Shown one piece after another: positions 3,755 to 27,626 of a DNA stretch of 64,000 nucleotides (the first letter of the stretch is position 1; each line of letters starts with the position of its first letter). The notes beneath the pieces were generated by a model. That model was not told where the DNA came from and ran no database searches. It saw nothing but the letters and a program-made list of their open reading frames with translations. Where the stretch lies: assembly GCA_937894845.1 (NCBI GenBank), contig CALCQJ010000122.1:2660-66659 (forward strand). The letters are read 5' to 3'. The DNA is from an uncultured Clostridia bacterium. Its GTDB lineage: Bacteria; Bacillota; Clostridia; Oscillospirales; Acutalibacteraceae. Made by a program: the position numbers and the translations under genes.

Positions 3755-4867
3755 TCATTTAATCATTCCGGTTGAAAAACCATTAACCAATATAGGTGGG
3801 ATGGTTATTTTTTTTGTAAACAGGGTTTTGGTGTTTATCATTTCAGTTAAAAGCTCAAATGCACAAGAGCCCATTTTATGAGAGTCCTGTAATATATGAG
3901 TGGGCTGCTCGCCGAACCAGTCAAAAAGCCCGATTCTGTCTATGTTGATAATTGAAAAATCGTCAGGAGAGGAAAAACCGCATTTGTTAATAATACTGCT
4001 GACAAGCTTATAATCATAAATACTAAGACATATAAATGAAGTAGCCAATTTGGTTTTGATTATATGCTCTAATTGCTTAATATTTTCCTTAGAATAAAGC
4101 TGGGTTAAAATTAAGGACGGATCTATCATAATATTGTTTTCAGCCATTTCCGACAAAAAACCATCAACCCTGCATGAAATGGAGGTTGTTGGCATTGGAG
4201 TGTGAGAGCATATGCAGATTTTTTTATGGCCGAGCTTGATAAGATGCGAGGTTGCAATTTGGGTAGCCGCTTTATTATCAGTTTGAACGCAGCTAAGACC
4301 TAATCCCGGCAAATCTCTGTCAATAAGTACTACCGGCAGTCCGGCGTTTGCAAGCACTATTAATTTTTTGTTATAAGTTTCTTGATTTGAGGGATAAAGA
4401 ATGATGCCGGATGTGTTTTGAGTGCTGATATAATTAATCAAGTCCTCTTCTTTTTCAATGTTATTCAATGAATAAAATAAAGAGCAATATATATCCGCTT
4501 TGTTGGCTGCATCAACAACCGATTGTGCCAATTTGATTGAGTAATGATCTGCCACGCCAGGCAGGATAAAAGATATATGCTTTGCAGATGATTGTACAAG
4601 ATTGTTGTCGGAATTATTAATTACCTGGGCATCTGAATGCAATTCTGAAACAAATGAGCCTTTTCCCGGAATGCGGGTAATTATTCCATTATTTGCAAGA
4701 CGGGTAAGGGAATTTACCACCACAATACGGCTAACCTTAAATTGCTCCATCAGTTCACTTTCTGACGGAATACGGCTGCCGGGCATATACTCATTGTTCT
4801 GAATTTTTTGTTGAATATAGTTCATAATTTGCATATATTTAGGAATTGTTTGTTTTGCTGTTTTCAT
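3755..4867 (-). CDS. GntR-family HTH regulator fused to a LacI/PBP1-type sugar-binding domain
   Basis: 370 aa. N-terminal winged-helix motif (IPSESELMEQFKVSRIVVVNSLTRLANNGIITRIPGKGSFV) followed by a periplasmic-binding-protein-like domain. SD GGGAGA. Divergent from the transport operon. Confidence 0.8.
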   Translation of the reverse strand: MKTAKQTIPKYMQIMNYIQQKIQNNEYMPGSRIPSESELMEQFKVSRIVVVNSLTRLANNGIITRIPGKGSFVSELHSDAQVINNSDNNLVQSSAKHISFILPGVADHYSIKLAQSVVDAANKADIYCSLFYSLNNIEKEEDLINYISTQNTSGIILYPSNQETYNKKLIVLANAGLPVVLIDRDLPGLGLSCVQTDNKAATQIATSHLIKLGHKKICICSHTPMPTTSISCRVDGFLSEMAENNIMIDPSLILTQLYSKENIKQLEHIIKTKLATSFICLSIYDYKLVSSIINKCGFSSPDDFSIINIDRIGLFDWFGEQPTHILQDSHKMGSCAFELLTEMINTKTLFTKKITIPPILVNGFSTGMIK

Positions 4868-4979: not shown

Positions 4980-5182
4980 TTTATTTAATTGCTATAATTA
5001 ACCAAATAAGTTATTAATAATTCACAAATATAAATATTTATGTTAAAATATTTAGCTAACCTCTTTACAAAAGTAAATAATTATGCTATTATTTTTTTGC
5101 GCTAAAAATCATAACTAATGGTTTGAAGTTATAAGATATAAACAGTTGGTAATATTAATATGACATATAGGGAGAGAAAGTC

Positions 5183-8092
5183 ATGATTTGCCTTTGCAGT
5201 TCCCGGAAAAAAGGTTTTATATGCATATTGATTGTCTTTATATTATTATTTTCCAATGGCAGATATTTTTTTTCTAAAGCAACCGGAAACAAATTATCTG
5301 AAAGGTTCCCATCTTATCATTCTTCAGATGGATCGGATGCGAAAGATTATTATCTAAACTATCTTTCGCAAATAGCAGACCATGAAATATATCCTGATAA
5401 ACAAATTAACATAAGCGTTTTGGATGCTTTGACCAGCCAGGGGAAAGTGCCTGTTTTGCACCGTAATGGAGAACCGGTGCTTGATTGGAGTAAGGATACT
5501 TTGGAATGGGTGCAATGGTCTTTTAATATTCCGAAAGCTGGTCTTTATAATATTGAAATAGATTATCGTGCGCTAAAGGGTACCGTGGAATCACCAAGGC
5601 GCAGCCTTGAAATTGACGGAGGTAAAATTGATTTCCACGAGCTTTCTAATATAGTTTTCCCGCGCTGCTGGTATGATGACGGCAAGCCTTGGATAAATGT
5701 GCTGGGTGATCAGGTAAGACCCAAGCAATCAGAAAAATTCATCAGACAGGCAATGAAAATTGAAGATTCGCTGGGTAAATATGATGAACCGCTGAAGTTT
5801 TATTTTGAATCCGGGAATCACACAATAAAGTTAAGCTACATACAAGAACCTATCGAACTGTATGGTGTTAAGATTTTACCTGCTGTACAAATAAAAAGCT
5901 ATGATGAGGTGCTTGTCGGCTGGAAAAAACTTGGCTATAAAGAGGCATTCAGGCAAATCAAGATAGATGCGGAATCACCGATAAAAAAGACTGAATCTTC
6001 TCTGCGTCTTGAATTTTCAGCTGACCCACTGGCAGATCCGGTATCAAGCGGAAATACAGTTTTTAATGCGATTGGGGGTTCCGGTTGGAACAAGGGAAAT
6101 CAGGGAATTATGTGGGAGTTTGATGTAGCTGAAAGCGGTTTATACTGTATCGACTTTCGCATGTTTCAAAAATATAACGACGGATTATCCTCTTTCAGGC
6201 AGATTTTGTTTGACGGCAAGGTTCCTTACCGTGAATTTCTATGCTATGAGTTCAAATATGGTGGATGGCAGGATGTAAGGGCAAAGAGCGACAGCGGGGA
6301 ACCTTTATTAATTTATCTTGAAGAAGGTAAACATACCCTTGAGATGAAAGTCAAGATTTCTGAATATACAGAGATCCTTTACGAGATGGAACAAACTCTG
6401 AGCCTTTTTTCAAAGGTAATTCAAAATATCATAATGATTACTGGAATTACTCCTGATACAAATTTTGATTATAAGTTTTTTGAAAAGCTACCATGGCTTG
6501 AGGAAACACTTAGTGAGATTTCATTAAGCCTTCAAAGGCAAATAGAAGGTCTGACTAAATCACTTAATAAAATTCCGGGGCCTGTAAATAGCCTTTCAAC
6601 AATCAAATACCGAGTAGATAAAATGAGAAATAATCCGTTTCTCATAGCAGCAAATCTGGATTACCTTATAGATGAACAAACGACTTTATCCTCATGGATC
6701 AGAGGATTTAATAATTTGCCGTTAACGCTGGATTACATATTGCTGAACAATCCTAAAAGTAAGGCTGAGAGCAAAAAAGCACATGCTTTTCAGGTTATCT
6801 GGTTTGCAGTCCGCAATTTCTATCAGTCCTTTTTTCGTGATTATGACTTTGTTGCAGGTGAAAATGCTAACGGTGAAGAGATAAAGACAATTAATGCATG
6901 GATATCCAGAGGTAAGGACTGGGGCGAAATTATCAAGCAGATTGCTGATGAGGATTTTACAAAAAGGACAGGCATAAATATTAAAATGAATATTCTGCCC
7001 GCGGGTCAGCTTGGCACAAGTGGAGTAATGCTGCTTGCTGTAGCTTCCGGAACGGCGCCTGACCTTGTTTTGGGCTCACAAGGTACGGTGCCTGCCGAGT
7101 ATGGTATGCGCGGAGTTCTTGTGGATTTACGGACCATGCATAATTATGATGAGATAGCCGGAAGGTTTGCAGAGGGCGTTATGATGCCTTACCGTTTTAA
7201 GGACAGTATATATGCGCTTCCAGAAACAATGGATTTTTCGGTGATGTTTTACAGAAAGGATATTTTATCATCTTTTAACTTGAAGCCTCCCGATACATGG
7301 GATGAGCTATACAGAGATGTATTGCCTGTTCTGAAACGAAATGGAATGGACTTTTGGTATGAGGGTGGCATTATAACCTTCCTGTTTCAGCATGGGGGCA
7401 GTATGTACAGCAAGGATGGTCTGAAATCAGCTCTCGATACGCAGGAGGCATTTGAAGCCTTTGGAAAATATGCTAATCTTTACAGAATTTATGATGTTCC
7501 TGTTTCTGCTAACTTTTATACACGCTTTCGTGCAGGTCAGATGCCTATAGGCATAAGCAGCTTTAATACATATCTTCTGCTCACCTCCGCTGCGCCGGAA
7601 TTAAACGGGAAGTGGGATGTAACACTTATTCCCGGCACTGTTCGTGAGGACGGCACAATTGACCGAAGTGATTCTGCTTCATCTTCTGCTACAATGATTT
7701 TCAACTCTTCACAATTGATTAACGAGTCTTGGAAATTTCTTGAGTGGTATACCAGTGCGGAGATTCAGACCCGGTATGCCGGCGATCTTGTAGCTTATAT
7801 CGGGCCTGAGGCAAAATGGTTTTCAGCTAATATTGAGTCCTTCGATGCCCTTTCCTGGGATAACAATCTTAAAAGGGTGGTAAAGGAGCAGCGTAAATGG
7901 TGTAAGGGCGTTCCAAGTGTAGTGGGCGGCTATATCACATCGCGGCATATTGAAAATGCGAGGGTTCGTGCAGTTGTACAGGGCAAGAATTACAGAGAAT
8001 CACTTGAAAGGGCCGCCAAGGATATAAACAGGGAGCTCGGACTAAAAAATAAAGAGTTTCAGCGCAGAATTCAGCAAAGCATTAGTGGGTGA
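5183..8092 (+). CDS. Giant membrane-anchored extracellular solute-binding protein: two CBM-like beta-sandwich modules, a helical spacer and an ABC family-1 SBP domain
   Basis: 969 aa. N-terminal anchor FICILIVFILLF. Two internally similar modules (GLYNIEIDYR...GNHTIKLSY and GLYCIDFRMF...GKHTLEMKV). The C-terminal ~400 aa are SBP-like (INAWISRGKDWG...APDLVLG...YALPETMDF). SD AGGGAGAG. Confidence 0.7.
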   Translation: MICLCSSRKKGFICILIVFILLFSNGRYFFSKATGNKLSERFPSYHSSDGSDAKDYYLNYLSQIADHEIYPDKQINISVLDALTSQGKVPVLHRNGEPVLDWSKDTLEWVQWSFNIPKAGLYNIEIDYRALKGTVESPRRSLEIDGGKIDFHELSNIVFPRCWYDDGKPWINVLGDQVRPKQSEKFIRQAMKIEDSLGKYDEPLKFYFESGNHTIKLSYIQEPIELYGVKILPAVQIKSYDEVLVGWKKLGYKEAFRQIKIDAESPIKKTESSLRLEFSADPLADPVSSGNTVFNAIGGSGWNKGNQGIMWEFDVAESGLYCIDFRMFQKYNDGLSSFRQILFDGKVPYREFLCYEFKYGGWQDVRAKSDSGEPLLIYLEEGKHTLEMKVKISEYTEILYEMEQTLSLFSKVIQNIIMITGITPDTNFDYKFFEKLPWLEETLSEISLSLQRQIEGLTKSLNKIPGPVNSLSTIKYRVDKMRNNPFLIAANLDYLIDEQTTLSSWIRGFNNLPLTLDYILLNNPKSKAESKKAHAFQVIWFAVRNFYQSFFRDYDFVAGENANGEEIKTINAWISRGKDWGEIIKQIADEDFTKRTGINIKMNILPAGQLGTSGVMLLAVASGTAPDLVLGSQGTVPAEYGMRGVLVDLRTMHNYDEIAGRFAEGVMMPYRFKDSIYALPETMDFSVMFYRKDILSSFNLKPPDTWDELYRDVLPVLKRNGMDFWYEGGIITFLFQHGGSMYSKDGLKSALDTQEAFEAFGKYANLYRIYDVPVSANFYTRFRAGQMPIGISSFNTYLLLTSAAPELNGKWDVTLIPGTVREDGTIDRSDSASSSATMIFNSSQLINESWKFLEWYTSAEIQTRYAGDLVAYIGPEAKWFSANIESFDALSWDNNLKRVVKEQRKWCKGVPSVVGGYITSRHIENARVRAVVQGKNYRESLERAAKDINRELGLKNKEFQRRIQQSISG

Positions 8093-8093
8093 G

Positions 8094-9011
8094 ATGATGA
8101 GAACCATGATTTTAAAAAGAAAATACAGTAGATATGAGATTAAAGAACGCCTGATTGCTGTTGCTTTTTTCCTTCCCTTTTTTGTTCTGTTTATTCTGTT
8201 TACTATAATACCTGTTATATCTGCACTGTTTCTTAGCCTCACAAATTATAGTGTTGTTCAAAGCCCCATTTTTATTGGGCTTGAGAATTACCAATATCTA
8301 TTTACGGAGGATAATGTATTCCTGAAAGCCATAGTAAACACTTTTTCATTTGCTGTTATTTCGGGTGTGTTTGGGTATGCACTTTCGTTTTTGGTAGCCT
8401 GGATAATAAGCAATTTAAAATTTAAAACTACATTTGCTCTTGCTTTTTACGCACCGTCCATAACAAGCGGCATTGCGATGTCTGTTGTTTGGCTGTACTT
8501 TTTCTCTTCGGACAGTTATGGAATATTTAATAATGCTTTAATGCAATTGGGCCTTATAAATGAACCAATTTTGTGGACACAGGATCCCGATCTTATCCTG
8601 CCGGTTGTTGTTATTGTTTCAATTTGGATGGGTATGGGCATGGGATTTCTAGGGTTTCTGGCAGGTTTTCAGAATCTTTCCAAGGAGATATTCGAGGCCG
8701 GGGCGATTGACGGAATACGCAACAAATATCAGGAGCTTATCTATCTTGTATTGCCATTAATGAAGCCTATGCTCTTGTTCGGTGCGGTAACCTCTGTTGT
8801 CAGTGCTTTCAGCATCTATGATGTACCATTGACACTTGTCGGCAGTCCCGGTCCCGAAAATGCAGGGCTTACACTTGTAGGGCACATAAATGATTATGCC
8901 TTTACCCGCATGGATATTGGTTACGGCTCAGCAGTTGCAGTTTTTCTATTTAGTATTACTTTCATAATAGGACGCATTCTGTTTAGGGTGCTTTCTTCTA
9001 AGGATGAATAG
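8094..9011 (+). CDS. Carbohydrate ABC transporter permease (MalF-like)
   Basis: Multi-TM protein with EAA loop EAGAIDGIRNKYQELIYLVLPLMKP. Its ORF overlaps the stop of the upstream gene. The start is ambiguous among 8085 (GTG), 8094, 8097 and 8106. Confidence 0.8.
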   Translation: MMRTMILKRKYSRYEIKERLIAVAFFLPFFVLFILFTIIPVISALFLSLTNYSVVQSPIFIGLENYQYLFTEDNVFLKAIVNTFSFAVISGVFGYALSFLVAWIISNLKFKTTFALAFYAPSITSGIAMSVVWLYFFSSDSYGIFNNALMQLGLINEPILWTQDPDLILPVVVIVSIWMGMGMGFLGFLAGFQNLSKEIFEAGAIDGIRNKYQELIYLVLPLMKPMLLFGAVTSVVSAFSIYDVPLTLVGSPGPENAGLTLVGHINDYAFTRMDIGYGSAVAVFLFSITFIIGRILFRVLSSKDE

Positions 9012-9021
9012 GGTGAGAATA

Positions 9022-9867
9022 ATGAAATTAAAATTTAGTTTAAGCAAATTATTCTTATATATATTTCTTATTGCGCTTGTATCCTTTACAGCACTTCCGC
9101 TTGTTTATCTTGTTTCATCCGCATTCAAACCGCTTGATGAGCTGTTTTTATTTCCCCCGCGATTTTTTGTCAAACGGCCGACATTTAACAATTTTACAGA
9201 ATTGCTGACAGCAGTAAGCAGCTCGACAGTTCCTTTTACACGATATTTTTTCAACAGTGCATTTGTGAGCATGGCCAGTGTTGGGATGTCTGTAATTGTC
9301 TGTTCAATGGCAACCTACTCAATTACAAAGCTTAAGCTTCCCTTTGCAAAAATGTTTTTTAACCTTATAGTTGCTGCATTGATGTTTTCACCACCCGCAG
9401 CTGCTATTTCCAATTATATTCTTGTCAATAAACTGGGAATGATGAATACGTATTGGGCATTAATTATTCCAAAGGTTGCCGGCTCATATTATTTTTTCCT
9501 GATGCGTCAGAACTTTATTCTAATCCCGGATGTAATTGTTGAGTCAGCCAGAATTGATGGATGTAATCCGTGGAAAATTTACACCAAAATTATTATGCCG
9601 CTGTCCAAGCCGGTTTTGGCTACTATTACAGTTTTTTCATTTGTTGCAAATTGGAATGATTTTCACTCCCCCCTTATTTACATAAACAAACAGGCACTTA
9701 AAACCCTGCCGCTGGCGCTTCAAATGCTTCAAGGAGGTGCAGGACAGGTAGCCCGCTCCGGTGCTATGGCAGCCGCTGCCCTTTTGACCACAGCACCTAC
9801 AATAATTGTATTTGTATTTATGCAATCAAAGGTTATCAACACTATGGCGCACACAGGCATTAAATAA
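9022..9867 (+). CDS. Carbohydrate ABC transporter permease (MalG-like)
   Basis: EAA loop ESARIDGCNPWKIYTKIIMPLSKP. The ORF is open from 9004, overlapping the upstream stop. The ATG at 9022 has the better SD (GGGTGAG, 4-nt spacer). Confidence 0.8.
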   Translation: MKLKFSLSKLFLYIFLIALVSFTALPLVYLVSSAFKPLDELFLFPPRFFVKRPTFNNFTELLTAVSSSTVPFTRYFFNSAFVSMASVGMSVIVCSMATYSITKLKLPFAKMFFNLIVAALMFSPPAAAISNYILVNKLGMMNTYWALIIPKVAGSYYFFLMRQNFILIPDVIVESARIDGCNPWKIYTKIIMPLSKPVLATITVFSFVANWNDFHSPLIYINKQALKTLPLALQMLQGGAGQVARSGAMAAAALLTTAPTIIVFVFMQSKVINTMAHTGIK

Positions 9868-9909
9868 CCGGCGCGACCTTCGTCTAATATTTAAATGGTG
9901 GAGGATGAA

Positions 9910-11997
9910 ATGAAGCAATTTAAAAGGTTATTCAGAATTAAAAAGTCGATTATTATATTATTTATATCGTTTGTTACAGCAATCAGCTTAATAACCGACG
10001 CCTCCGCCGATTATTATATTACCAATACGGAGCTTGGCACCCAGGGAATACCCAAGACCTATACTGTTTCAAATGTAATCGGAAGCTTTGGAGGCACGGA
10101 AGTGCTTGCAAATCCGATTGATTTATTTATTGATGATAAGGATAACCTATACATTCTGGACTCAGGTAATTCACGGATATTGGTGCTGGACGAAGACGGT
10201 AAATTTCTGCGGGAGATATCGGACAGCTACGGAAAAGATTCACTTTCTCTCAACAATCCGGGCGGAATATATGTTGATGAAATCGGAGATATATTTATTG
10301 CAGATACAGGAAATGCGCGTATACTGCATCTTAACAGCAACGGTGGCTTTATTGAAGAGTTTTTTCAGCCAAAGGAAGATACATATGATACATCGTATCC
10401 ATTTAAGCCAAGCAAGGTGTATTTGGATTCCGCCGGAAAGCTGTATACTGTTAACGATTTTGACTGGCACGGAATTATTGTAATGGATGGGGAAAACCGG
10501 TTTCTCGGTTATATAGGCGGCAGTAAGATTGGTTTCAGTTTAACTGACTGGTTTGTCAGGATATTTGCAACTAAGGCACAGAAGGAACAGCTTGCAAGGG
10601 AAACGCCTCCGTATTTTTCGAATTTTTTAATTAATGAAGGCCTGATTTATACTACATCATATTGGGAAGACAAAAATCAGATTAAAAAGCTTACTCCGGC
10701 CGGTGATAATATCTTTCCAAAAAAGCTTTACGGGGAGATGAATGAAAAAACAAACTTTAATGAGCGCCCCGGCTTTGTTGACCTTGCAGTGGACAAAAAG
10801 GGAATTGTTTATGCTGCCGATATGGTGGTCAGCAAAATATATGTATATGATCAGGAAGGAAATAATCTGGCTGTTTTCGGTGGCGAGGGCAGGCGCAAAG
10901 GCTATTTTAATAATATTTCTTCGATTGCAGTTAATTCCAAGGGTGATCTTTATATTCTCGACCGCATAACCGGTCTTATACAGGTTTTTACTCCTACAGA
11001 GCTAATGCGCAATATCATAGCAGCCACAACATGCTATAACGAGGGGCAATATGAGGCCGCTATTGAGTCGCTTAACATGATACAAGGCTTTGACAGCACC
11101 AATTATTTTGCAAATATTGCACTGGCGAAGGTGCAATACCGTCTTGGCAACACAAAAAAAGCCATGGCCCTTTACCGTATGTCCTTTAATAAGTCCGGTT
11201 ACTCCGATGTTTTTGGTGATTACAGAATAGATTGGGTAAGAAATAATTTTCTGCTGCTATTTATCGGAATTTTATCTGCAATGTTTTTGGCAACGTTTGG
11301 GTTCTTAAAACTTAAAAAGTATGCAGATGCAACATCACAGCAAACAACTATTCCGGATAGGCACTTTGGTTTCAAGGGGTATGTACGCCTTGGAGTTTTA
11401 ATGATTTTTCATCCAATCGATTGCTGTGACGGTATTAAGGCAAACCGTAAAAAGCTAACCTACTGGCCCGTAATTATTCTAACGGCTGCAATTATTCTTG
11501 CTCGCATTATCTATCTGTTTTTAGTGCATTTTCCACTAGCCGATCTGAACGCAGCAAAAGCTGATCTATGGCAGCAGGTCGCCATGATTCTTATCCCTCT
11601 ATTTTCATGGATTATTGTCTGCTTCTTGATATCCTCCATCTCTGAGGGCAAGCAGACATTTCTCGAAGCATTATTTTCATCCTTGTTCTCCTTTTTGCCG
11701 TATATAGTGCTTACAATACCGCTTGGCTTGTTATCGCGTTGCCTTACATCAGGTGAAAGAGGTCTGTTCGAACTTCTCTCTTCAATTATTCTTATGTGGA
11801 GTATAGGTCTGCTTCTGCTTTCCTGTAAGCTGCTTAATCAATATAGCTTCGGGAAGCTTGTAGGGCTCATTTTAAAGACTATATTCGGGATATTATGCTT
11901 ATGGATGATCACAATGCTGTTTTATATTGTTGTTTATCAATCTTTTAATTTCTTTAAAAGTATCTACACTGAGTTTAATATACTGATAAATCGCTGA
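9910..11997 (+). CDS. Membrane protein with a signal anchor, NHL-type beta-propeller repeats, a TPR-like segment and a C-terminal multi-TM Yip1-like domain
   Basis: About 5 NHL-like blades (LYILDSGNSRILVLDEDG, IFIADTGNARILHLNSNG, VYAADMVVSKIYVYDQEG, LYILDRITGLIQVF). TPR-like GQYEAAIESL...LGNTKKAMALY. About 5 hydrophobic helices in the last 250 aa. SD GGAGG lies 5 nt before the ATG at 9910 (ORF open from 9895). Confidence 0.6.
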   Translation: MKQFKRLFRIKKSIIILFISFVTAISLITDASADYYITNTELGTQGIPKTYTVSNVIGSFGGTEVLANPIDLFIDDKDNLYILDSGNSRILVLDEDGKFLREISDSYGKDSLSLNNPGGIYVDEIGDIFIADTGNARILHLNSNGGFIEEFFQPKEDTYDTSYPFKPSKVYLDSAGKLYTVNDFDWHGIIVMDGENRFLGYIGGSKIGFSLTDWFVRIFATKAQKEQLARETPPYFSNFLINEGLIYTTSYWEDKNQIKKLTPAGDNIFPKKLYGEMNEKTNFNERPGFVDLAVDKKGIVYAADMVVSKIYVYDQEGNNLAVFGGEGRRKGYFNNISSIAVNSKGDLYILDRITGLIQVFTPTELMRNIIAATTCYNEGQYEAAIESLNMIQGFDSTNYFANIALAKVQYRLGNTKKAMALYRMSFNKSGYSDVFGDYRIDWVRNNFLLLFIGILSAMFLATFGFLKLKKYADATSQQTTIPDRHFGFKGYVRLGVLMIFHPIDCCDGIKANRKKLTYWPVIILTAAIILARIIYLFLVHFPLADLNAAKADLWQQVAMILIPLFSWIIVCFLISSISEGKQTFLEALFSSLFSFLPYIVLTIPLGLLSRCLTSGERGLFELLSSIILMWSIGLLLLSCKLLNQYSFGKLVGLILKTIFGILCLWMITMLFYIVVYQSFNFFKSIYTEFNILINR

Positions 11998-12019
11998 ACA
12001 AGTCGGAAAGGGTGTCTAT

Positions 12020-14653
12020 ATGCTCACGCTGAAAAAAATAAGAGTTTTCAGAGTGTTGATTTTGCTTATAGTGATAATCTTACTGTTGGGCATCACTTAT
12101 TCAGCAAATTTACTAAACAGCCTTAAATATAAAAGTCATATGAACGCTGTAGAAACAGGCATAATTGCAGATTTAGCTATTCCAGCAGGTGATGCAGCGG
12201 ATGCATCCCGATTCTCAGAACAGAATCCCGTTGGAGCAGGATATCGCAAAGTAGCTGAAAACAACAATCTTATACTTTTTCTTGAAGATAATCTTCAGGG
12301 TATAAAGCTATATGATAAACAGTCGGGTCAGATTTGGAGCAGCCTTATGCAAGGAGAGGGACTGTCTGCCGCCGATTTATCTGAAAGCTACTATAATGCA
12401 ATGAATTCTATGCTTACATTTCAATATGTAGATTTGCACAGGAACGGCACAAAGGAGGAACTGACATATTCCTCGGTAGAGCCGTGTGAAGGCTCATATG
12501 AAGCAATTTTAAACGGTGTACGTGTAACATATAATTTTTACGAATTAAATATCCATCTTTCAGTTGACTTTACGTTGGAGGATAATCGTCTGTCTGTTTC
12601 TGTACCTGACGAGTTGATAGAAGAAAATATCAGCGGTGATGATGAGCTTGAAAAGAACCGTAAACAGCTAAAGCTTCTTATAAAAAAGCTAGAGACAGGC
12701 GGCGATGATGTTAAAAAAGCTACCTCTATGTCAGATTATTCGGAAAGCAAGCACAGAATTATTGAGCTGACAATAAACAGCAACAGAGAGATTTTACTTT
12801 CACTGGAAAATCATGCTTTATCGGGCAACCTCTCCCCGAATGCCCTTGATGACCTTAATGATAATATTAAAAGACTTTTATCATTAACTGATGATAATAA
12901 AACAGCACAGGAGCTTTTATCTGAAATCCGGCCGACGATTGACGAACTGGAGATCATTTCGCAAAAGCTATCTGACAGCCGTTCAACCGGGATTACATCA
13001 CTGCAGGTTATTCCTTACTTCGGGGCACAGCGCTCCAGTACTGACGGATATGTTTTTTTCCCTGACAGAAACGGAGCCATTTCATATTTTAATCGCAAGC
13101 ATTCTGTCATGGCGGGCGTATATCAGCAGGATATATATTCAGAGCATGCAATATTACAGCTGATAAATACTGAAAGCGTTAATATTGAAACAAATTATAC
13201 TTCTCCGACGATGATGCCGGTATTCGGTATAAAGGCTGAAAAGAGCGCTTTTGTTGGAATAATTGATAAAGGTGATACAGATAGTGCTATATTATTTAAT
13301 CCGTGTCAGCCTGATATAGATGCGGGAAATATAAATCCATTATATTACGTAAGAAAGAAATCCACCTATGTAAGCGAAAATAGCAACCAGAATATAATAT
13401 TCGATAGGCTTCGTACCAAAACTGATTGGAGGACATATTATGTTTTTTTAAACGGTGAAGCTGCGGATTATTCCGGCATGGCAGTGGAATACCGCAAATA
13501 TCTTGAAGAAAAAGAGCTGCTTGTTCCGTCTAAGATGATGGGCAAAGATTTGCCAATTGGGCTTAGATATTTTATGGGTATTGAAAGCAATCGTCAAAGC
13601 TTATTACGTGAATATATAACCATGACTCGATTCTCTGATATTATCGACCATCTGAATTTTTTTAAGAATGCCGGTGTGGAAAATGTTATGATCAACATTT
13701 CCGATTGGAGCGAGCATAACGGCGTAAGGGAACCCGACACTTTAAAGCCGGCAGGTGAAATCGGCGGCATTAAGGGTCTTACCCAATTATCTGAATTCGC
13801 AAAAAATAATAACTATCTTCTCAGCTTTTCTAAACAAATGGTTTGGGCAAACCGAAAGGATATGTCATCTGAATTTATTGATACAGCAGCTGTCAGAAAC
13901 AAAAGCCTGCTTACATTTGCAAGCTACGGATGGCATTTGCTGAACCCGCTTTATATCTATAACAGCAATGTATCGGATAGTCTTATAACGTTTAAAAAAT
14001 ACGGAATAAATGGTCTGGAGATAGGTGCTGCAGGAAATCTTCTTTATTTTGATTATAACAGCTCTGGTTCTGTTGATAGGTCGGATACCGCAAGGGTTTT
14101 TAATAAGCTTGCGCGGGAAATCCAGAAGACTTTGGGATACTCCGTCGGGACACAGGCTAATTCCTATATGTTTTCTGCGCTGGATTGGAACATGTATGTA
14201 AGCTTAGAGGACAGTAAATTTTTATATGCTGATGAAAATGTACCTTTTTATCAAATGGTCATACATGGCAGCATTCCATATACGGGAGAGGAATTTAATC
14301 TGATGCATGATGAAACTCTTCAGAAATTACAGGCAATTGAATATGGGTATCTACCATATTTTTTTATTACCGAGGAACCACCGTTTAAGATGCGTGAAGC
14401 AGGTTATAATTATTTTTTATCCGGGCATGCCGGGACTTTGCTCAACAACATATCAGAGATTTATCAAGATTATAAAGAGGATTTCGGCGCAATATGGAAC
14501 AAAAAAATAATTCGACATAACCGCCTGTCTGACACAATAAGTAAAACGGAATATGATGGAGGCTACAGCGTATATGTCAATTACGGGGATACCGAGGCTT
14601 CAATTGACAATATAACAATAGGTGCAAAAGATTATACAGTTGTCAGGACATAG
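12020..14653 (+). CDS. Large membrane-anchored extracytoplasmic protein of unknown function (resembles DUF5696-type proteins from memory, unverified)
   Basis: 877 aa. N-terminal anchor VLILLIVIILLLGITY. Contains a coiled-coil-like insert. I see no catalytic motif I can name. It sits between the two permease pairs. Confidence 0.5.
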   Translation: MLTLKKIRVFRVLILLIVIILLLGITYSANLLNSLKYKSHMNAVETGIIADLAIPAGDAADASRFSEQNPVGAGYRKVAENNNLILFLEDNLQGIKLYDKQSGQIWSSLMQGEGLSAADLSESYYNAMNSMLTFQYVDLHRNGTKEELTYSSVEPCEGSYEAILNGVRVTYNFYELNIHLSVDFTLEDNRLSVSVPDELIEENISGDDELEKNRKQLKLLIKKLETGGDDVKKATSMSDYSESKHRIIELTINSNREILLSLENHALSGNLSPNALDDLNDNIKRLLSLTDDNKTAQELLSEIRPTIDELEIISQKLSDSRSTGITSLQVIPYFGAQRSSTDGYVFFPDRNGAISYFNRKHSVMAGVYQQDIYSEHAILQLINTESVNIETNYTSPTMMPVFGIKAEKSAFVGIIDKGDTDSAILFNPCQPDIDAGNINPLYYVRKKSTYVSENSNQNIIFDRLRTKTDWRTYYVFLNGEAADYSGMAVEYRKYLEEKELLVPSKMMGKDLPIGLRYFMGIESNRQSLLREYITMTRFSDIIDHLNFFKNAGVENVMINISDWSEHNGVREPDTLKPAGEIGGIKGLTQLSEFAKNNNYLLSFSKQMVWANRKDMSSEFIDTAAVRNKSLLTFASYGWHLLNPLYIYNSNVSDSLITFKKYGINGLEIGAAGNLLYFDYNSSGSVDRSDTARVFNKLAREIQKTLGYSVGTQANSYMFSALDWNMYVSLEDSKFLYADENVPFYQMVIHGSIPYTGEEFNLMHDETLQKLQAIEYGYLPYFFITEEPPFKMREAGYNYFLSGHAGTLLNNISEIYQDYKEDFGAIWNKKIIRHNRLSDTISKTEYDGGYSVYVNYGDTEASIDNITIGAKDYTVVRT

Positions 14654-14684
14654 GGAATGGCTTCAAAGGAGGTGAAGAGCTAAC

Positions 14685-15536
14685 TTGATTAAGATAAAGT
14701 CACTTGAAAAAAGACGCAGGTTTGCCGGATATATATTTCTTTCACCATGGCTTATAGGCTTTCTTATCTTTATGCTTTATCCGCTGTGTGCAAATTTTAT
14801 TATGAGCTTCAGTAAAATCACCGATGTGGTCGGACTTAAAACTCAATTAATAGGATTTGAAAATTATAATAAACTTTTCACGGAAAGCACGGAGTTTATT
14901 CCCGCATTTATAGATACACTAACAAAGACATTTTTATGGACGCCGTTTATTATTGTATTCTCTTTGTTTCTGGCAATCTTGCTTAACAGAAAGCTGATGT
15001 TTAAGGGAATATTCAGAATTATATTTTTTATGCCGGTATTACTCGGCAGTGGTTACATAATGCAGCAGCTTGGTGGAGCAGCTAACATTTTAAAACTTCC
15101 GTTGGATGCAAAAAAATTGATTGAGTATTATATCAGCCAGGATATATCAGCATTTTTGCAAGAGCTGCTGGAGCAAATTATGCGTGTTTTTTGGAAGACC
15201 GGAGTTCAGATTGTAATATTTTTATCAGGATTGCAAAGCATTCCGGAATCGTACTATGAGGCTGCCAAGGTGGATAATGCCAATAGCTGGGATAGCTTCT
15301 GGAAGATAACCTTGCCCATGCTATCACCTGTTATATTGCTTAATACTGTATATACAATGATAGAGAGCTTCCGGAATACGGATAATAAAATTGCTAATCT
15401 TATAGTTAAAATAATCTTTAATAGTGCGGATTATGAATATGGTGCTGCAATGGGATGGATTTATTTTTCAGTAACTTTTCTAATTATCGGATTTATCTTC
15501 TTGGTATCAAGGAGGCTTGTAAATTATGAAAAGTAG
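14685..15536 (+). CDS. Carbohydrate ABC transporter permease
   Basis: TTG start 10 nt after SD AAGGAGGTG. EAA loop EAAKVDNANSWDSFWKITLPMLSP. Multi-TM. Confidence 0.8.
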   Translation: MIKIKSLEKRRRFAGYIFLSPWLIGFLIFMLYPLCANFIMSFSKITDVVGLKTQLIGFENYNKLFTESTEFIPAFIDTLTKTFLWTPFIIVFSLFLAILLNRKLMFKGIFRIIFFMPVLLGSGYIMQQLGGAANILKLPLDAKKLIEYYISQDISAFLQELLEQIMRVFWKTGVQIVIFLSGLQSIPESYYEAAKVDNANSWDSFWKITLPMLSPVILLNTVYTMIESFRNTDNKIANLIVKIIFNSADYEYGAAMGWIYFSVTFLIIGFIFLVSRRLVNYEK

Positions 15537-16461
15537 ATTTAAAACAATTTCAGGCCATATTTACAGCTTAAATGAGAATTATTTTAGAATGAGCAAATTC
15601 CACTTTGCTAACATTATTGCAAACATTATCAGCTATATGATGTTGATTGCTCTATCGGTAATTTTTTTGGCGCCGTTTATTTATATGCTGGGACATTCGC
15701 TTATGTCTTCGACGGATTTGGCTGATATAAATGTGGTGTGGCTGCCACGCAGCTTTATAATGAAAAATTATTCTCTGGCAATTACCGTGTTGAATTACAA
15801 AAGCCGGCTGATATGGAGCTTGCTTATTACAGTGACCGGTGTTATAGGGCAGGTAGCCTCTTGCTCATTTGTCGGCTATGGACTTGGCAGAATTAATTTC
15901 AAAGGGCGCGGTACTGCATTTGCATTAATAATATTCTCTATGTTGGTACCTCCCCAGACGATTATTATGTCTCAATATTTAATGTTTGCCCGGGCGGGAT
16001 TCTTAAATACGGCGGTACCCATAGTAATGCCCACTTTTTTCTCCCTTGGATTAAACGGGGGGTTGTTCGTTTTCTTATTTCGTCAATTTTTTAAAAGTAT
16101 GCCCCGCGAACTTGAGGATGCGGCGCTGATAGACGGCGCGGGGGTTTTTGGCGCATATTTTCGAATCATGCTGCCTAACTGTTCTTCTACTATTCTTGTA
16201 ACAGTAATTTTATCGTTTATTTGGCAATGGAACAACTATTTCGAGCCTACAATTTATATTAATGATCTTAGCAAATATACACTTGTTATGATGTTGTCAA
16301 ATCTTAGGGAAACTGCATTAAATCAATTTAACTTGAGTGGCTTTAACAATGGTATCAATCTTGCAGCAACAGTTCTGTGCGCGTTACCGCCAATAATATT
16401 GTTTTTTGTTTTACAAAGATGGTTTATTAAAGGGATTGAGACTACCGGACTTGCAAACTAA
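15526..16461 (+). CDS. Carbohydrate ABC transporter permease
   Basis: Overlaps the upstream gene by 11 nt. SD AGGAGG. EAA loop DAALIDGAGVFGAYFRIMLPN. Confidence 0.8.
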   Translation: MKSRFKTISGHIYSLNENYFRMSKFHFANIIANIISYMMLIALSVIFLAPFIYMLGHSLMSSTDLADINVVWLPRSFIMKNYSLAITVLNYKSRLIWSLLITVTGVIGQVASCSFVGYGLGRINFKGRGTAFALIIFSMLVPPQTIIMSQYLMFARAGFLNTAVPIVMPTFFSLGLNGGLFVFLFRQFFKSMPRELEDAALIDGAGVFGAYFRIMLPNCSSTILVTVILSFIWQWNNYFEPTIYINDLSKYTLVMMLSNLRETALNQFNLSGFNNGINLAATVLCALPPIILFFVLQRWFIKGIETTGLAN

Positions 16462-16611
16462 TAATTAATGTGCAGAAATTTACTCGCAACTCTGAAAAAG
16501 GATTAGAGATTACTTGATGCTTTAATAATCCTAAAACAATTTATAAACCGTATAGTGGTTACATTTTCGGATTTTTAGTACACATCAATCATTAATAAAG
16601 AAGGAGTGACT

Positions 16612-18102
16612 ATGATGCCTATTAGGTGTAGAAGAGTTTTGGTTTTTATACTTGTTTTTTCTTTTTTTATTGGCGCAGCATCAGGATGTAAAAAAGAGCC
16701 GATTAAAGGCGGCAGCTTGGTTGAAAATTCGGGAAATGATTACAGTGATATTTCGAGCAATGGTGATGTTGGCGACGAGAGCGGGTATGATTCGGATAAC
16801 TCCAATGGCAATGAAGATAACAGCCGGTCCGAAGACGCGTCTCAAAGCAATAACAGCGAAACGGGTGGCTCTGATTCGCGAACAGGAGGAACCGGCACGC
16901 CCGGCACAACACCTGGCACAACACCCGGCAAAACAACTTCACCCGGTCCCAATACAGGCAAAAAGGTAATTGAAATTTGGGATTCGGAGAGTAATGAGAC
17001 ATTAACACTTGCGGCTGTTGATTATGAGAGCAAAAACAAAAATGTTACAATTTCAATTAAGCAGCAGGGCAAAACATCTCTTAATATGCTAAAAATGGCA
17101 GTAGCTGCAAAAAGTGCGCCGGATATTGTATGTATGGATCAGGTATATTTAGTAGCAGCGGGTAATCTTTCATATCTGCATGACCTTACAAAGTATGGTG
17201 CAAATAATGTTAAAAGTAAATTTACCGATTCATGCATCAAAAGCATAACATATCAAAATAAGCTATACGGTCTTCCGTTTGATGCCAATACAATATGCTT
17301 TATTTATAATAAAGATATTATAAATCAGGCCGGTGCCGCAGTTCCTACAAATTACAATGAGCTTATTACCGCAAGCAACAAGATAAAAGCAAAGTTCGGC
17401 ACCTCAAAATACTCTTATACAGTACCCTTTGACGGATGGAATAATAAGAACTGGATGGCATTTAATTATTTCTTCTGGCTATGGAGAATGGGTGGAGAAA
17501 TATTAACCCCCGATCTTAAGAAAGCCGCCTTTAACAGCACAGAGGGTGTTCAAGCGCTCCAGATGCTCGTCAATATGAAAAACGACGGACTTGCAGCACC
17601 AACCTATAAGCATAATGAGTTTTTCAGCGGTCAGGTAGGCATGATAGATATTGGCTCATGGACCTATAATAAGGTTTTTGGGGCTGACAAAAGTGGCAAT
17701 TTCGGTGTTTCACTGCTGCCTGTATTAAAAACCGGAGTTCTTCCTTATTCAGGACTGGGTTTGTATTGTTACGGTGTAACTACCGGCAGTAAGAATGTCC
17801 AGGAAGCATATAATTTTATTGAATTCTATTGCACAAGCTCAAAATATCAGCTTCAATATTGTAAGAGAAATAATTTTTTACCTTCTTTAAAGGGCGCATA
17901 TAATGATTCTTTTTATTCTGCACCTGAATGGAAGGTTATGATTAAGCAGCTTGGTTATTCAAAATTCCGCCCCGGAGTTCCGAATTGGGACAGGATGGAG
18001 GAATCAATTGCAGATGCTGTTAAACTGGCCGTACTGGGACAAAAATCACCGAAAGAGGCATTGGATGCAGCTGCAAACAATGTCAACAGATTGATTAAAT
18101 AG
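16612..18102 (+). CDS. Lipoprotein ABC sugar-binding protein (CUT1 family)
   Basis: Lipobox FIGAASGC, a long S/N/D/G/T/P-rich linker, then an SBP fold (APDIVCMDQ..., YGLPFDANT). SD GAAGGAG precedes the ATG at 16612. Confidence 0.8.
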   Translation: MMPIRCRRVLVFILVFSFFIGAASGCKKEPIKGGSLVENSGNDYSDISSNGDVGDESGYDSDNSNGNEDNSRSEDASQSNNSETGGSDSRTGGTGTPGTTPGTTPGKTTSPGPNTGKKVIEIWDSESNETLTLAAVDYESKNKNVTISIKQQGKTSLNMLKMAVAAKSAPDIVCMDQVYLVAAGNLSYLHDLTKYGANNVKSKFTDSCIKSITYQNKLYGLPFDANTICFIYNKDIINQAGAAVPTNYNELITASNKIKAKFGTSKYSYTVPFDGWNNKNWMAFNYFFWLWRMGGEILTPDLKKAAFNSTEGVQALQMLVNMKNDGLAAPTYKHNEFFSGQVGMIDIGSWTYNKVFGADKSGNFGVSLLPVLKTGVLPYSGLGLYCYGVTTGSKNVQEAYNFIEFYCTSSKYQLQYCKRNNFLPSLKGAYNDSFYSAPEWKVMIKQLGYSKFRPGVPNWDRMEESIADAVKLAVLGQKSPKEALDAAANNVNRLIK

Positions 18103-18214
18103 CATGCTTTTAAATGTGAATTGCCCTACATAAGCTGTATCCGGCAGTTATTTTCCGCATTAAGTATCTGCCGTATAATAAAAATTTTTTATAATGCGGA
18201 GAAAAGGAGAAACT

Positions 18215-20566
18215 ATGAAATGGTATTATCGCATCCCGGCAATAATTCTTTGCATTGCTTTTTTACCTTTTATTTCAACGAGTTTCCAAAAGAGCTCTGT
18301 AGGGATGTTGCATAGCGGGCCTGACAGGGTTCAATTGAGCGCAATGTCTGACAATCAATTAGCAAAGAGCGGCACAAATAGCGAACAAATTATGCAGCTA
18401 AAAGCAGGCAAGGCTTCATTTGAACCAGGAACTGTACAAGAGGCAGTTATGATGGTGGAGGAACTTAAAGAGCAGCCTTTTTATTCCAACTTAAAAACAG
18501 CCGATAAACTCTATTACATCGAGGGCGATAAACTTAATTCAGCAGAGAGGAATCTGATTTTATCATTACAGGGTATTGTTGCACAGGAGGAAAGCCAGAT
18601 TTTTGTTTATTACAGCAGTGATAAACTTTGGTTTGAGGCTCTTCAAAAATACTACGGAATTACTATGGAAGAAGTAAAAACCATATGGGATATGGTAGAT
18701 TTATTCAAGGATAAGCTACAGGATAACGGATTTGTGCGCTATACACAATATGATTCATCCAAGACTTATCTTGATAACCCCACTGCACCATGTTCAATAA
18801 ACACAGCCACTGTAATATCGGGAATGGAAAAATATCTTATTGTAGAGGATTCACTTGTCGAAACGGCAATATCGAGAGGACTTGAACAAAAGGCAGATGC
18901 ACTGGATTATTTCGAGCTTGATGTGTATTTTGAATATCAGGATAAGCTAAATAAAGACATTATGACATCTTTAACCTATAATTCAACAACACTGAGAGAT
19001 GTTTCTATTGCACTGAAAACAATGGTTTGGCGTGATTCAGATATTGATGACCTTACTTTTATGCTTAGCAACATGAATCCGAATGGTATTTTGCTCGGCT
19101 GGCATGACGCCGAATACACCGGTGTTCTGGCAGGAACAACACAATCATATGCCACAATTGCTTCGGATACCGGCAGAAACTTTTCTGTTTTTGCAGGCTT
19201 GCCAAAAAGCAAATTGAAGCAAAAGCCACCAATGAAATATGAACTTAAAGATAAAAAGGATGTTCATTATGTTACCTTTATCATGAGTGACGGAGATAAT
19301 ATACAATGGGTAGAAGGCAGCTATACAAACGGAGAAAAATATTTTGCTGCGCGCTCGCGTGGCGAGATTCCTTACGGGTGGACATTATCCCCAAGCCTTG
19401 TTGAGCTGTCACCACTTTTCCCGCGCTACTTATATTCCAATGCTACAGTGAATGATAATTTCGTTGCGGCATTTTCAGGTCTTGGATACATGTATCCGTC
19501 CAAATATCCGGCTTCGCAGCTTGAAAAGTTTACCGAACGGACAGCTAAATATATGGACGCGTTGAATATGAGCTATACAACAATTCTGGATTTAGAGGAT
19601 GATTATCCCGATAAGACGAAGAGAGACAGAGTTTTGAATGCCTATTCGAAGCACTCTAATATTAAAGGCGGGTTCTTATATTATCATATAGACCGCTATG
19701 TCAGTTCGCAGATGGGCGGAGGTATATTCTGGAGCAATGGTAAGCCCTTTGTGAGCATGCGTGAATCACTGTGGGTAAGTGAATCTAATCAGGATCAATA
19801 TGACAAAGCGGAGGTAGCTTCGCAGATGGCTCATCGTATAAACAGCTATAAAAAAGATTGTACAGTCATTGATGGATATACGGCAGTTAACGTACATCCA
19901 TGGTCGTTTTCATATGATTATTGTACATCCATTACAAAGCTGCTTGATGATAATGTAGTAGTTGTAACTCCAAGTGAGTTTATGGAGCTTATTGCAAAGA
20001 ATGTTGAGAAAAAAGATGTTCCGGTGATAAAAACCGGCAAGAAGAATATGCATGATACATTTGATTACACCAATATGAAACGCTATTATGAGAGCGGAAT
20101 ACTTGATCTTAATGCTATTAAGCATAAGCAGCCAACAGACATGCTGATCTTCGATTTTAATTCAGGCGGTACCCAGGGCTGGATTCCCGCTCCTGGAAAC
20201 AGGGCGCTTGATCAGGTGCACTTACTTTCGGGTGGTATTGAGTTCATAGGTTCCTATTTTGGCCAGAAGCCCACTGAGCCGAACGGAAGTATTTATAATA
20301 AAATAATACTACCTGAAAAAGCTGATTTAAAGTTGAATGTTACTGTACAGTCAACGACAACAATGGGAAGAATTCAGGTTGTTAATGAAAATTCAAAAGT
20401 GGATACTATATATGATTGGACAGATTGGGCAAATACTTATAACTCAACTGTATATACAGCCGATTTATCTGAATATGCGGGAAAAACAGTTACCGTTATT
20501 ATTCAGTTCAGGGATGAATCCGGTTCAGGTGCACATATGAGAATAAACAAAATTGTTATTGAATAG
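18215..20566 (+). CDS. Secreted GxGYxYP-family protein (putative glycoside hydrolase, activity unknown) with a C-terminal beta-sandwich-like extension
   Basis: Signal peptide MKWYYRIPAIILCIAFLPFIS. Exact family motif G-L-G-Y-M-Y-P at nt 19478-19498. SD AAAGGAG precedes the ATG at 18215. Confidence 0.65.
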   Translation: MKWYYRIPAIILCIAFLPFISTSFQKSSVGMLHSGPDRVQLSAMSDNQLAKSGTNSEQIMQLKAGKASFEPGTVQEAVMMVEELKEQPFYSNLKTADKLYYIEGDKLNSAERNLILSLQGIVAQEESQIFVYYSSDKLWFEALQKYYGITMEEVKTIWDMVDLFKDKLQDNGFVRYTQYDSSKTYLDNPTAPCSINTATVISGMEKYLIVEDSLVETAISRGLEQKADALDYFELDVYFEYQDKLNKDIMTSLTYNSTTLRDVSIALKTMVWRDSDIDDLTFMLSNMNPNGILLGWHDAEYTGVLAGTTQSYATIASDTGRNFSVFAGLPKSKLKQKPPMKYELKDKKDVHYVTFIMSDGDNIQWVEGSYTNGEKYFAARSRGEIPYGWTLSPSLVELSPLFPRYLYSNATVNDNFVAAFSGLGYMYPSKYPASQLEKFTERTAKYMDALNMSYTTILDLEDDYPDKTKRDRVLNAYSKHSNIKGGFLYYHIDRYVSSQMGGGIFWSNGKPFVSMRESLWVSESNQDQYDKAEVASQMAHRINSYKKDCTVIDGYTAVNVHPWSFSYDYCTSITKLLDDNVVVVTPSEFMELIAKNVEKKDVPVIKTGKKNMHDTFDYTNMKRYYESGILDLNAIKHKQPTDMLIFDFNSGGTQGWIPAPGNRALDQVHLLSGGIEFIGSYFGQKPTEPNGSIYNKIILPEKADLKLNVTVQSTTTMGRIQVVNENSKVDTIYDWTDWANTYNSTVYTADLSEYAGKTVTVIIQFRDESGSGAHMRINKIVIE

Positions 20567-20589
20567 ATTAATTGAATGGGGGTATGGTT

Positions 20590-24880: not shown

Positions 24881-24916
24881 ATATACCAGCCCAATTACCT
24901 GTTAGGGCTGGTATAT
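24881..24916 (+). terminator. Hairpin with a perfect 12-bp stem after the surface-protein gene
   Basis: ATATACCAGCCC (24881-24892) pairs with GGGCTGGTATAT (24905-24916). The U-tract is weak. Confidence 0.45.
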
Positions 24917-24972
24917 TGCAGAGGTTAGCAAAAACCTTAAAGAGTTCAAAAGGTCATAAAAGGAGCAGTGCC

Positions 24973-27450: not shown

Positions 27451-27626
27451 CACAACACATCCCCTGAAAAAGTATTTGAGGCTGCAGGCAGGCGGATACT
27501 CTATGTAGTAGTGTGCATGTTTCCTCGGGTGCATTTAACAAATTATTTGAATGCTGTGTTAAGGTTTTTTGCGGTTTTATAACCCTACTGTGCCTTGTAG
27601 CGCAGCGGAAAGGAATGGTCACAACT

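Follow-up and report, generated by a model that had tools for sequence, protein, structure and literature searches.

The subject of this paper is a gene cassette at positions 5183–18102 of a 64-kb stretch of DNA from an uncultured Clostridia bacterium (the whole of which we call the ‘window’), comprising eight genes on the forward strand that encode a candidate system for the capture and import of glycans. Working from the ‘start’ of the cassette onwards, we see a giant, membrane-anchored substrate-binding protein (SBP) of 969 amino acids (5183–8092), followed by a first pair of permeases: A1 (8085–9011), a MalF-like transmembrane domain (TMD) with the EAA-type coupling loop ‘EAGAIDG’, and A2 (9004–9867), a MalG-like TMD with the loop ‘ESARIDG’. 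Beyond these lie a 695-aa fusion of NHL, TPR and Yip1 parts (9910–11997) and an 877-aa DUF5696 protein (12020–14653), then a second pair of permeases, B1 (14685–15536; MalF-like, loop ‘EAAKVDN’) and B2 (15526–16461; MalG-like, loop ‘DAALIDG’), and finally a lipoprotein SBP of ordinary size (16606–18102; 498 aa) with a lipobox-like AASGC, a match to Pfam SBP_bac_8 at 9.5e-33 and weak NCBIfam matches of the GanS/MalE type.

All eight open reading frames (ORFs) are found exactly where the first-pass annotation of this DNA had drawn them, tightly packed and with the same overlapping junctions (8085/8092, 9004/9011 and 15526/15536); the remaining intergenic gaps, those before 9910, 12020 and 14685, measure 22–43 nt and carry Shine–Dalgarno-like sequences. 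For the NHL gene, a start at ATG 9910 is likely rather than one at ATG 9895 (which would give 700 aa), because a GGAGG lies 6 nt upstream of the former. We find no terminator-like sites between the cassette genes, the terminator count for the region being at the level of chance.

The arrangement of these genes is conserved to a striking degree, as revealed by two surveys. In the first, an alignment of DUF5696 was compared with one genome per GTDB species and the best 80 of at least 546 relatives were retained; the second, seeded independently on the NHL-Yip1 protein (12 sequences), retained the best 80 matches in metagenomes, amongst which one lineage is dominant. ORFs at each locus were annotated with hidden Markov models built from alignments of the cassette proteins, and loci with enough flanking DNA were taken as evaluable (70 from genomes and 33 from metagenomes), giving approximately 100 complete cassettes overall. 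All seven core families are present, on one strand, at each of the 70 evaluable genome loci, in the order giant SBP, A1, A2, NHL-TPR(-)Yip1, DUF5696, B1, B2; the giant SBP gene is the first cassette gene in every complete locus. A script requiring strict order accepts 64 of these 70, the six that it flags being two in which A1 lies behind B2 and four artefacts, due to ORFs that were too long or to the limits of the locus windows; A1 is relocated in this way, with the remaining order kept, at loci L015, L027 and L035. Of the evaluable metagenome loci, 31 of 33 carry the full cassette in the same order, the other two being ‘half-cassettes’ composed of NHL/Yip1, DUF5696, B1 and B2 (L139, 7304–15174; L154, 9992–16240). 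That the half-cassettes keep exactly these genes suggests that they form a tighter sub-module within the whole. As to the surroundings of the half-cassettes, a second NHL protein of 882 aa is encoded directly upstream of that in L139, whilst in L154 a GH106 gene lies upstream and the gene for a DUF4340 protein directly downstream.

Single look-ups of NHL homologues return the same order in a Clostridia metagenome-assembled genome (MAG), in Cohnella nanjingensis and in Paenibacillus lycopersici, the last with NHL-TPR and Yip1 as separate genes, and the two most distant DUF5696 matches available are also encoded between NHL/Yip1 and permeases. Synteny with ABC permeases is thus universal across the approximately 100 evaluable loci, bearing out the earlier suggestion, for which synteny of this kind had been named as a check, that the two odd genes in the middle of the cassette are dedicated to the permeases on either side. 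Carriers include Lachnospiraceae, Ruminococcaceae, Acetatifactor, Butyrivibrio, Defluviitaleaceae, Paenibacillus, Cohnella, Gracilibacillus and Lederbergia, as well as two MAGs, one of Selenomonadales and one of a Spirochaete; most of these taxa are Gram-positive, and gene order is invariant across Bacilli, Clostridia, Negativicutes and the Spirochaete MAG while the surrounding carbohydrate-active enzymes (CAZymes) vary. The human gut is the source of many of the metagenome loci, most of these belonging to one lineage, and the names of further MAG carriers point to the guts of chicken, sheep, rabbit and ruminants.

A comparison of flanking genes allows the conserved core to be separated from what is particular to each locus. 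Directly downstream of B2 an SBP gene is found in approximately 18 of 76 loci, the position elsewhere belonging to an oxidoreductase, a kinase or one of GH10, GH38, GH20, GH9, GH29 and GH36. At the other end, the gene immediately before that of the giant SBP (67 loci) encodes an SBP in approximately 19 cases, a regulator of AraC type in 12 and an ATPase of MalK type in six, with GH43, GH76, GH88 and GH127 amongst the remainder. Because an SBP occupies its position in so few loci, the small lipoprotein SBP of the window is a locus-specific addition that lies outside the core; the core itself is one giant SBP and four permeases, together with NHL-TPR(-)Yip1 and DUF5696. The picture of two importers ‘interrupted’ by the two middle genes, as the first-pass annotation had it, does not hold for this unit.

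The cassette also multiplies and diverges as a whole. Several copies are found per Paenibacillus genome; in three such genomes with two cassettes each, the copies are 28–51% identical in all seven components, compared with 84–97% for orthologous cassettes between species, the fastest-diverging components being DUF5696, NHL and the giant SBP (the extracellular parts). Such behaviour would match that of a specificity-bearing, co-evolving module, in the manner of SusC/D pairs; a functional likeness and not one of homology.

Turning to the individual components, the SBP domain of the giant protein is limited to residues 579–868 (Pfam SBP_bac_1, 4e-26, the profile match itself spanning 579–862). 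Ahead of it, in order, are an N-terminal transmembrane (TM) helix, two β-sandwiches resembling carbohydrate-binding modules (CBMs) of families 6 and 35 (residues ~95–235 and ~300–395) and a coiled coil (~400–570), the whole ending in the SBP domain of CUT1 type. A profile of the N-terminal portion (43 sequences, first 570 residues), searched against the PDB, matches the CBM35 of cycloisomaltooligosaccharide glucanotransferase (CITase, 5x7g) at 2.6e-7; the earlier repeat gives weaker CBM6/CBM35 matches (for example the CBM6 2y8k at 0.006), and residues ~400–520 match coiled coils. The N-terminus is hydrophobic in the window protein, as it is in 95 of 108 giant SBPs. At the same locus in another sample (L001, 2761–5538) the ORF for the giant SBP is of 925 aa and ends ~140 nt earlier than that of the window, a C-terminal difference representing either strain-level variation or a difference in assembly.

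The NHL-TPR-Yip1 protein yields a confident AlphaFold2 (AF2) model (57 homologues; mean predicted local distance difference test score, pLDDT, of 90.7). From the N-terminus, this consists of a TM anchor (residues 2–26; nt 9913–9987), a six-bladed NHL propeller (34–362; nt 10009–10995), a set of TPR-like helical hairpins formed from five paired antiparallel helices (364–445; nt 10999–11244), a second TM helix (447–476; nt 11248–11337) and a Yip1-like region, in which a short cytoplasmic segment is followed by five TM helices (488–694; nt 11371–11991). The first-pass annotation had expected profile matches to all three named parts, and these fared differently. The NHL assignment (PF01436) is clear, at 58.6 bits against a cut-off of 20 (E 3.9e-16), with Foldseek matching the propeller to others of NHL type at 1e-17 (TM-score to target ~0.8) and sequence matches to the NHL domains of TRIM71, Thin and Brat, as well as to PknD (1rwi). 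TPR profiles stay below their Pfam cut-offs (the best, TPR_2, at 22.1 bits against 27), with precomputed TPR family hits present on many homologues. There is no direct Pfam match to Yip1 (PF04893), the C-terminal 251 aa returning no families at E up to 10, and full-length Foldseek of the model finds propellers only, leaving the Yip1 part unmatched; PF04893 is, nevertheless, present on most of 742 full-length homologues of the window protein, and a stand-alone protein of 215 aa from P. lycopersici, itself positive for PF04893, shares 33% identity (E 2e-39) with the C-terminal domain of the window protein. Judged by this homology and by the modelled five-TM topology, the assignment of the C-terminal domain to Yip1 holds. 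NHL-TPR and Yip1 are encoded by one fused gene in 33 genome loci and by separate, adjacent genes in 34, the break falling exactly after the second TM helix; the split NHL-TPR proteins are membrane-anchored at both ends (84/88 and 87/88).

The 877-aa protein matches DUF5696 (PF18952) with 430.8 bits against a cut-off of 25.6 (E 1.2e-128), over profile positions 37–612 of 612, so the label given to it in the first pass was correct. Hydrophobic N-termini are found in 123 of 131 DUF5696 proteins, and the family as a whole is a large one, running to 3,889 clusters at 50% identity (E up to 1e-3). Our AF2 model is of pLDDT 68 (predicted TM-score 0.71), because the alignment behind it is shallow. It places an N-terminal TM anchor ahead of a β-sandwich (residues ~75–478), itself split by a helical coiled-coil insert of ~110 residues (206–319; nt 12635–12976), then a (β/α)8 barrel (~513–825; nt 13556–14494) and a C-terminal β-sandwich (830–876). 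The insert, which is confined to the longer DUF5696 variants (~840–950 aa), might pair with the coiled coil predicted for the giant SBP.

Searched against the PDB with Foldseek, the DUF5696 model finds GH129 first: the 3,6-anhydro-D-galactosidase ZgGH129 (5opq) at 5.9e-24, with a TM-score to target of 0.65, and the α-N-acetylgalactosaminidase NagBb (5wzn) at 2.5e-18; GH101 (2zxq) follows at 6e-12, then FpGalactosaminidase, GH36 and GH97. The moderate-confidence model thus has the β-sandwich / (β/α)8 / β-sandwich fold of GH129 and the related GH101, with the same three-domain architecture. By sequence the relationship is far fainter: a single DUF5696 sequence matches nothing in the PDB at E up to 10, whilst profiles do so significantly over the N-domain and barrel strands 1–3, the full-length profile reaching GH129 (8rzg/5opq) at 2e-8 over the N-domain and start of the barrel, and a barrel-only profile (71 sequences) reaching residues 296–406 of NagBb at 1.1e-8. 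Identity to GH129 (ZgGH129 5opq/8rzk, NagBb 5wzn) is ~10–13%, profile matches are confined to partial regions and the catalytic strands are not alignable. Unlike GH129, moreover, DUF5696 has a TM anchor, carries the 110-residue helical insert (in this subgroup) and, in the loci examined, is always encoded within an ABC permease operon. Taking fold and profile together, DUF5696 is best described as a distant relative of GH129, not a member, and the 877-aa protein as a probable membrane-anchored, glycosidase-like subunit. The first pass had called the protein unknown and had held that a match to a characterised enzyme family would count against an accessory role; the protein does match such a family, though remotely, and this refines our view of it without placing it in GH129.

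Positions in the model point to candidate catalytic residues, each of which is present in the window protein: D678 as nucleophile, in the motif Y-x-D-Y-N after barrel strand 4, where GH129 also has an Asp; and, near strand 6, D722 or D738-E739 as acid/base, the latter in the motif D-E-x-V-P-F-Y-Q (NagBb numbering is, we presume, D435 and E478). The placement of D678, D722 and D738 is the layout expected for a GH129-like fold, and D722 is conserved in 93 of 131 cassette homologues. Catalysis by the window protein is plausible, but is not secured as a conserved function of the family.

Each of the four permeases has a BPD_transp_1 domain and an EAA-type coupling loop, through which a permease engages its ATPase, giving two MalF/MalG-like pairs. 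The window thus contains, twice over, the two TMDs with EAA loops that characterise a type I importer, together with SBPs of SBP_bac_1/8 type. B1 is always encoded directly downstream of DUF5696, half-cassettes included, and the two ORFs often overlap. No MalK/UgpC-type ATPase is found in any of the six frames of the 64-kb window by phmmer with a UgpC/MalK-type query, in agreement with the first-pass annotation; the only nucleotide-binding domains in the window belong to two fused exporter genes (35151–39268). It is established that one ATPase can be common to several CUT1 systems in Firmicutes. To describe the system itself as ‘ATPase-less’, as had been done, is nevertheless incorrect: in six Paenibacillus loci a UgpC/MalK-type ATPase gene encoding 373–382 aa directly precedes that of the giant SBP (L029, 1743–2888; L067, 1536–2672; L068, 1642–2790; L070, 1222–2349; L074, 1632–2768; L080, 1247–2368), the two ORFs overlapping in five of the six and lying 88 nt apart in L080. 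These upstream ATPases carry an OB_MalK domain, and the two that were scanned against NCBIfam score above the UgpC cut-off (443 bits against 432). The six cassettes are complete, nine-gene versions with an ATPase of their own, and because of these in-cis genes the cassette can be tied to energisation of MalK type.

The cassette of the window sits within an island whose whole context is one of carbohydrate utilisation. On the upstream side are genes for a sulfatase (970–2292, reverse strand) and, adjoining it just upstream of the cassette, a radical-SAM/SPASM protein (2604–3701, forward) resembling anSME, of anaerobic sulfatase-maturase type. Between these and the cassette is a gene with a GntR helix-turn-helix (HTH) and a LacI-type sugar-binding domain (3755–4867, reverse; Pfam GntR 1.6e-17, Peripla_BP_4 and Peripla_BP_3), divergent from the cassette and probably a local regulator outside the conserved core. 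Promoter-like sites are found at 5021–5092 of the 315-nt region that separates the two; inverted repeats in this region were considered as operators and rejected, being AT-rich and unconvincing. Downstream of the cassette, and on the forward strand, are a GxGYxYP putative glycoside hydrolase (18194–20566) and a 1430-aa protein (20572–24864) with a signal peptide, a C-terminal hydrophobic tail of LPXTG type and a weak NCBIfam EF0750_LPXTG match. This latter protein has no Pfam domain above cut-off and faint matches to CBM_4_9 and Y_Y_Y; it may be an enzyme or a binding protein, anchored to the wall and of no recognised family. GH78 (24916–27450), GH38 (27513–30413) and an alkaline phosphatase are also amongst the downstream neighbours. 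The proximity of sulfatase, anSME-like gene, GH78 and GH38 suggests that the target is a sulfated glycan containing rhamnose or mannose.

Several further features of the region may be recorded here. GxGYxYP genes flank the cassette only in the closest relatives of the window: L004 (3015–4979 and 18212–20749), L007 and L087. G+C content is 0.35–0.43 across positions 1–38000, the carbohydrate region, as against 0.43–0.48 across 38000–64000, where housekeeping genes (addAB, shikimate and NAD) are found; the region of lower G+C may be a horizontally acquired island. ORFs at 32009–32596 (reverse, 195 aa) and 47098–48225 (forward, 375 aa) have no Pfam match.

Amongst characterised systems, the cassette is closest to the CUT1 (MalEFGK2-type) importers of Gram-positive bacteria that work with MsmK/MsmX, having in common with these the MalF/MalG-like pairs, EAA loops, cluster-B-type SBP domain, a setting within a polysaccharide utilisation locus (PUL) and, presumably, an ATPase supplied in trans (in cis for some Paenibacillus cassettes). 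It differs in having four TMD genes and one core SBP, in the anchoring of that SBP by a TM helix and its extension by a coiled coil and a pair of CBM-like modules, and in the presence of three extra, obligatorily co-encoded, membrane-anchored components. For the pairing of a polytopic Yip1 protein with an ABC transporter a precedent exists in YknWXYZ. YknW, a Yip1-family protein of Bacillus encoded together with the YknXYZ pump, is reported to modulate the assembly of that pump and to be required for its assembly or activity (PMC4887032, citing Yamada et al. 2012). YknYZ is, however, an exporter of MacB type whose partner is a membrane-fusion protein and whose role is protection against a peptide toxin, whereas the partners in the cassette are type I importer permeases, and its Yip1 part, unlike YknW, is joined to an NHL-TPR ectodomain or encoded beside one; the island contains BPD_transp_1 permeases only, with no membrane-fusion protein or MacB domains, and we use YknW as an analogy and no more.

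Two further comparisons concern the uptake of large glycans. The Sus-type utilisome of Bacteroidota (SusCD, surface glycan-binding proteins and a surface glycosidase) follows the same logic of a co-encoded binder, enzyme and transporter and, like the cassette, is duplicated and diverges as a unit amongst PULs with different CAZymes. There is no homology between the two: the cassette has ABC permeases at the cytoplasmic membrane rather than a TonB-dependent barrel, and no SusC or SusD domains are found in the window, so this likeness too is one of analogy. In the alginate ABC importer of Sphingomonas sp. A1 (AlgM1M2SS with AlgQ1/Q2; cited in PMC9751261), uptake of a macromolecular glycan is reported to be helped by extra cell-surface proteins; that system differs in being Gram-negative, uses one TMD pair with soluble SBPs, and lacks Yip1, NHL and GH129-like partners.

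On balance, we lean towards a reading of the cassette as a modular, membrane-anchored machine for the capture, trimming and import of glycans, and think it somewhat better than an even chance that this is so; from genes and models we infer its physical complex, the catalysis by DUF5696, the roles of the two translocators and the substrate. In this scheme, the CBM6/35-like modules of the giant SBP would keep polysaccharides or large oligosaccharides at the membrane, with the SBP domain loading A1/A2; DUF5696, as a TM-anchored, distant relative of GH129, would trim or cleave the captured chain at the surface. The NHL-TPR ectodomain, presumably fixed at both ends by TM helices and joined or adjacent to the five-TM Yip1, could serve as a glycan-binding or scaffold subunit that joins DUF5696 to B1/B2, by analogy with YknW. 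B1/B2 would then import a second product, whose supplier might be a small SBP particular to the locus (here the one at 16606–18102), the giant SBP or the accessory proteins themselves. Both translocators would be powered by an ATPase of MalK/UgpC/MsmK type, encoded elsewhere in the genome or, for some Paenibacillus, in cis.

A number of points weigh against this reading. Conservation of an operon alone is no proof of assembly, and the need for two translocators is not accounted for. The surveys draw on the best 80 matches each, those from metagenomes being mostly of one lineage, set against a family of 3,889 DUF5696 clusters. Confidence in the DUF5696 model is moderate and is weakest at the putative active-site loops, and the profile alignments end ~30 residues short of the GH129 nucleophile, before the catalytic strands, so the assignment of D678 rests on its position. 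Nor are the candidate carboxylates invariant: of the 131 homologues from cassettes, 87 have D and 40 have N at the position of D678, whilst at that of D738 the split is 91 with D and 35 with T; either the residues have been wrongly assigned, therefore, or catalysis is not the conserved role. The substituted set is made up mainly of one prevalent human-gut lineage of 28 near-identical sequences, together with ~15 others. Members of this lineage (L103–L138 and related) have a DUF5696 protein of 706 aa in which N stands in place of D678, T in place of D738 and A in place of N714, and theirs may be a pseudo-enzyme variant.

Of the alternatives, one takes the proposed machine a step further, to a single supercomplex in which two MalFG-type translocators are bridged by Yip1, B1/B2 are loaded by NHL-TPR and DUF5696 instead of by an SBP, and DUF5696 acts as an enzyme in certain lineages whilst being a pseudo-enzyme elsewhere. 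We put this forward tentatively and consider it unlikely in so complete a form; if true, it would represent the equivalent, at the cytoplasmic membrane, of the utilisome of Bacteroidota, and the first case of a non-SBP receptor feeding a type I ABC importer. An opposite view, and to our minds also an unlikely one, sees two independent CUT1 importers, with the middle genes as passengers of the PUL (a surface enzyme and a binding protein) that are co-inherited but act separately. Each permease pair does have the full MalF/MalG-like make-up, the window does contain two SBPs (about one locus in four has an SBP directly downstream of the cassette, and about one in four has one directly upstream) and Gram-positive PULs commonly combine enzymes with transporters. 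It is hard, however, to reconcile independence with an order that is invariant from Bacilli to the Spirochaete MAG though the surrounding CAZymes change, with one core SBP for four permeases, with the retention of NHL/Yip1, DUF5696, B1 and B2 in half-cassettes, with the duplication and divergence of cassettes as whole units or with accessory proteins that are all tethered to the membrane.

That DUF5696 has the fold of a glycosidase but serves chiefly as a non-catalytic receptor, docking together with NHL-TPR-Yip1 on B1/B2 in place of a soluble SBP, strikes us as rather improbable. It would explain why pair B has no SBP in the conserved core, why the half-cassettes consist of exactly these components, why DUF5696 always directly precedes B1, its ORF often overlapping, and why the candidate nucleophile and acid/base have become N and T in the human-gut lineage and the ~15 other sequences; against this, D678 and D738-E739 are kept in most members, the window protein included, and pair B could be served by the giant SBP or by one encoded elsewhere. 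Type I ABC importers are, moreover, fed only by proteins of SBP fold in every case known to us. Very improbable is a role for NHL-TPR-Yip1 and DUF5696 as a sensor or gate that regulates the transporter or signals the availability of glycan, for, although extracellular NHL propellers do act as sensors (PknD, matched by sequence at 1rwi, is an example) and two-component and AraC regulators are frequently found beside the cassette, neither protein has a cytoplasmic output domain (kinase, HTH or GGDEF) and the neighbouring regulators vary by locus and are complete systems by themselves.

In the literature searched, which covers few subscription journals, we find no paper on the cassette and none that mentions DUF5696, consistent with the earlier statement that no function of this kind has been described; a September 2026 review of bacterial glycoside transporters includes no Yip1, NHL, DUF or accessory components (PMC13543919). 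Within that literature, the combination of obligatorily co-encoded membrane accessories with a doubled translocator on a type I sugar importer is undescribed.

The usual picture of glycan uptake in Gram-positive bacteria is of one SBP, two permeases, a shared ATPase and enzymes that act separately. The cassette points to a more elaborate uptake machine than this, in which the transporter would come permanently coupled to a receptor that bears CBMs, a glycosidase-like protein and a propeller anchored by Yip1, and which may be widespread, relatives of DUF5696 being present in at least 546 species-level genomes. If confirmed, it would provide functions for DUF5696 and for bacterial Yip1 and NHL proteins, a marker with which to predict Gram-positive PULs and, in culturable Paenibacillus, a tractable system for the question of how long glycans enter ABC importers.

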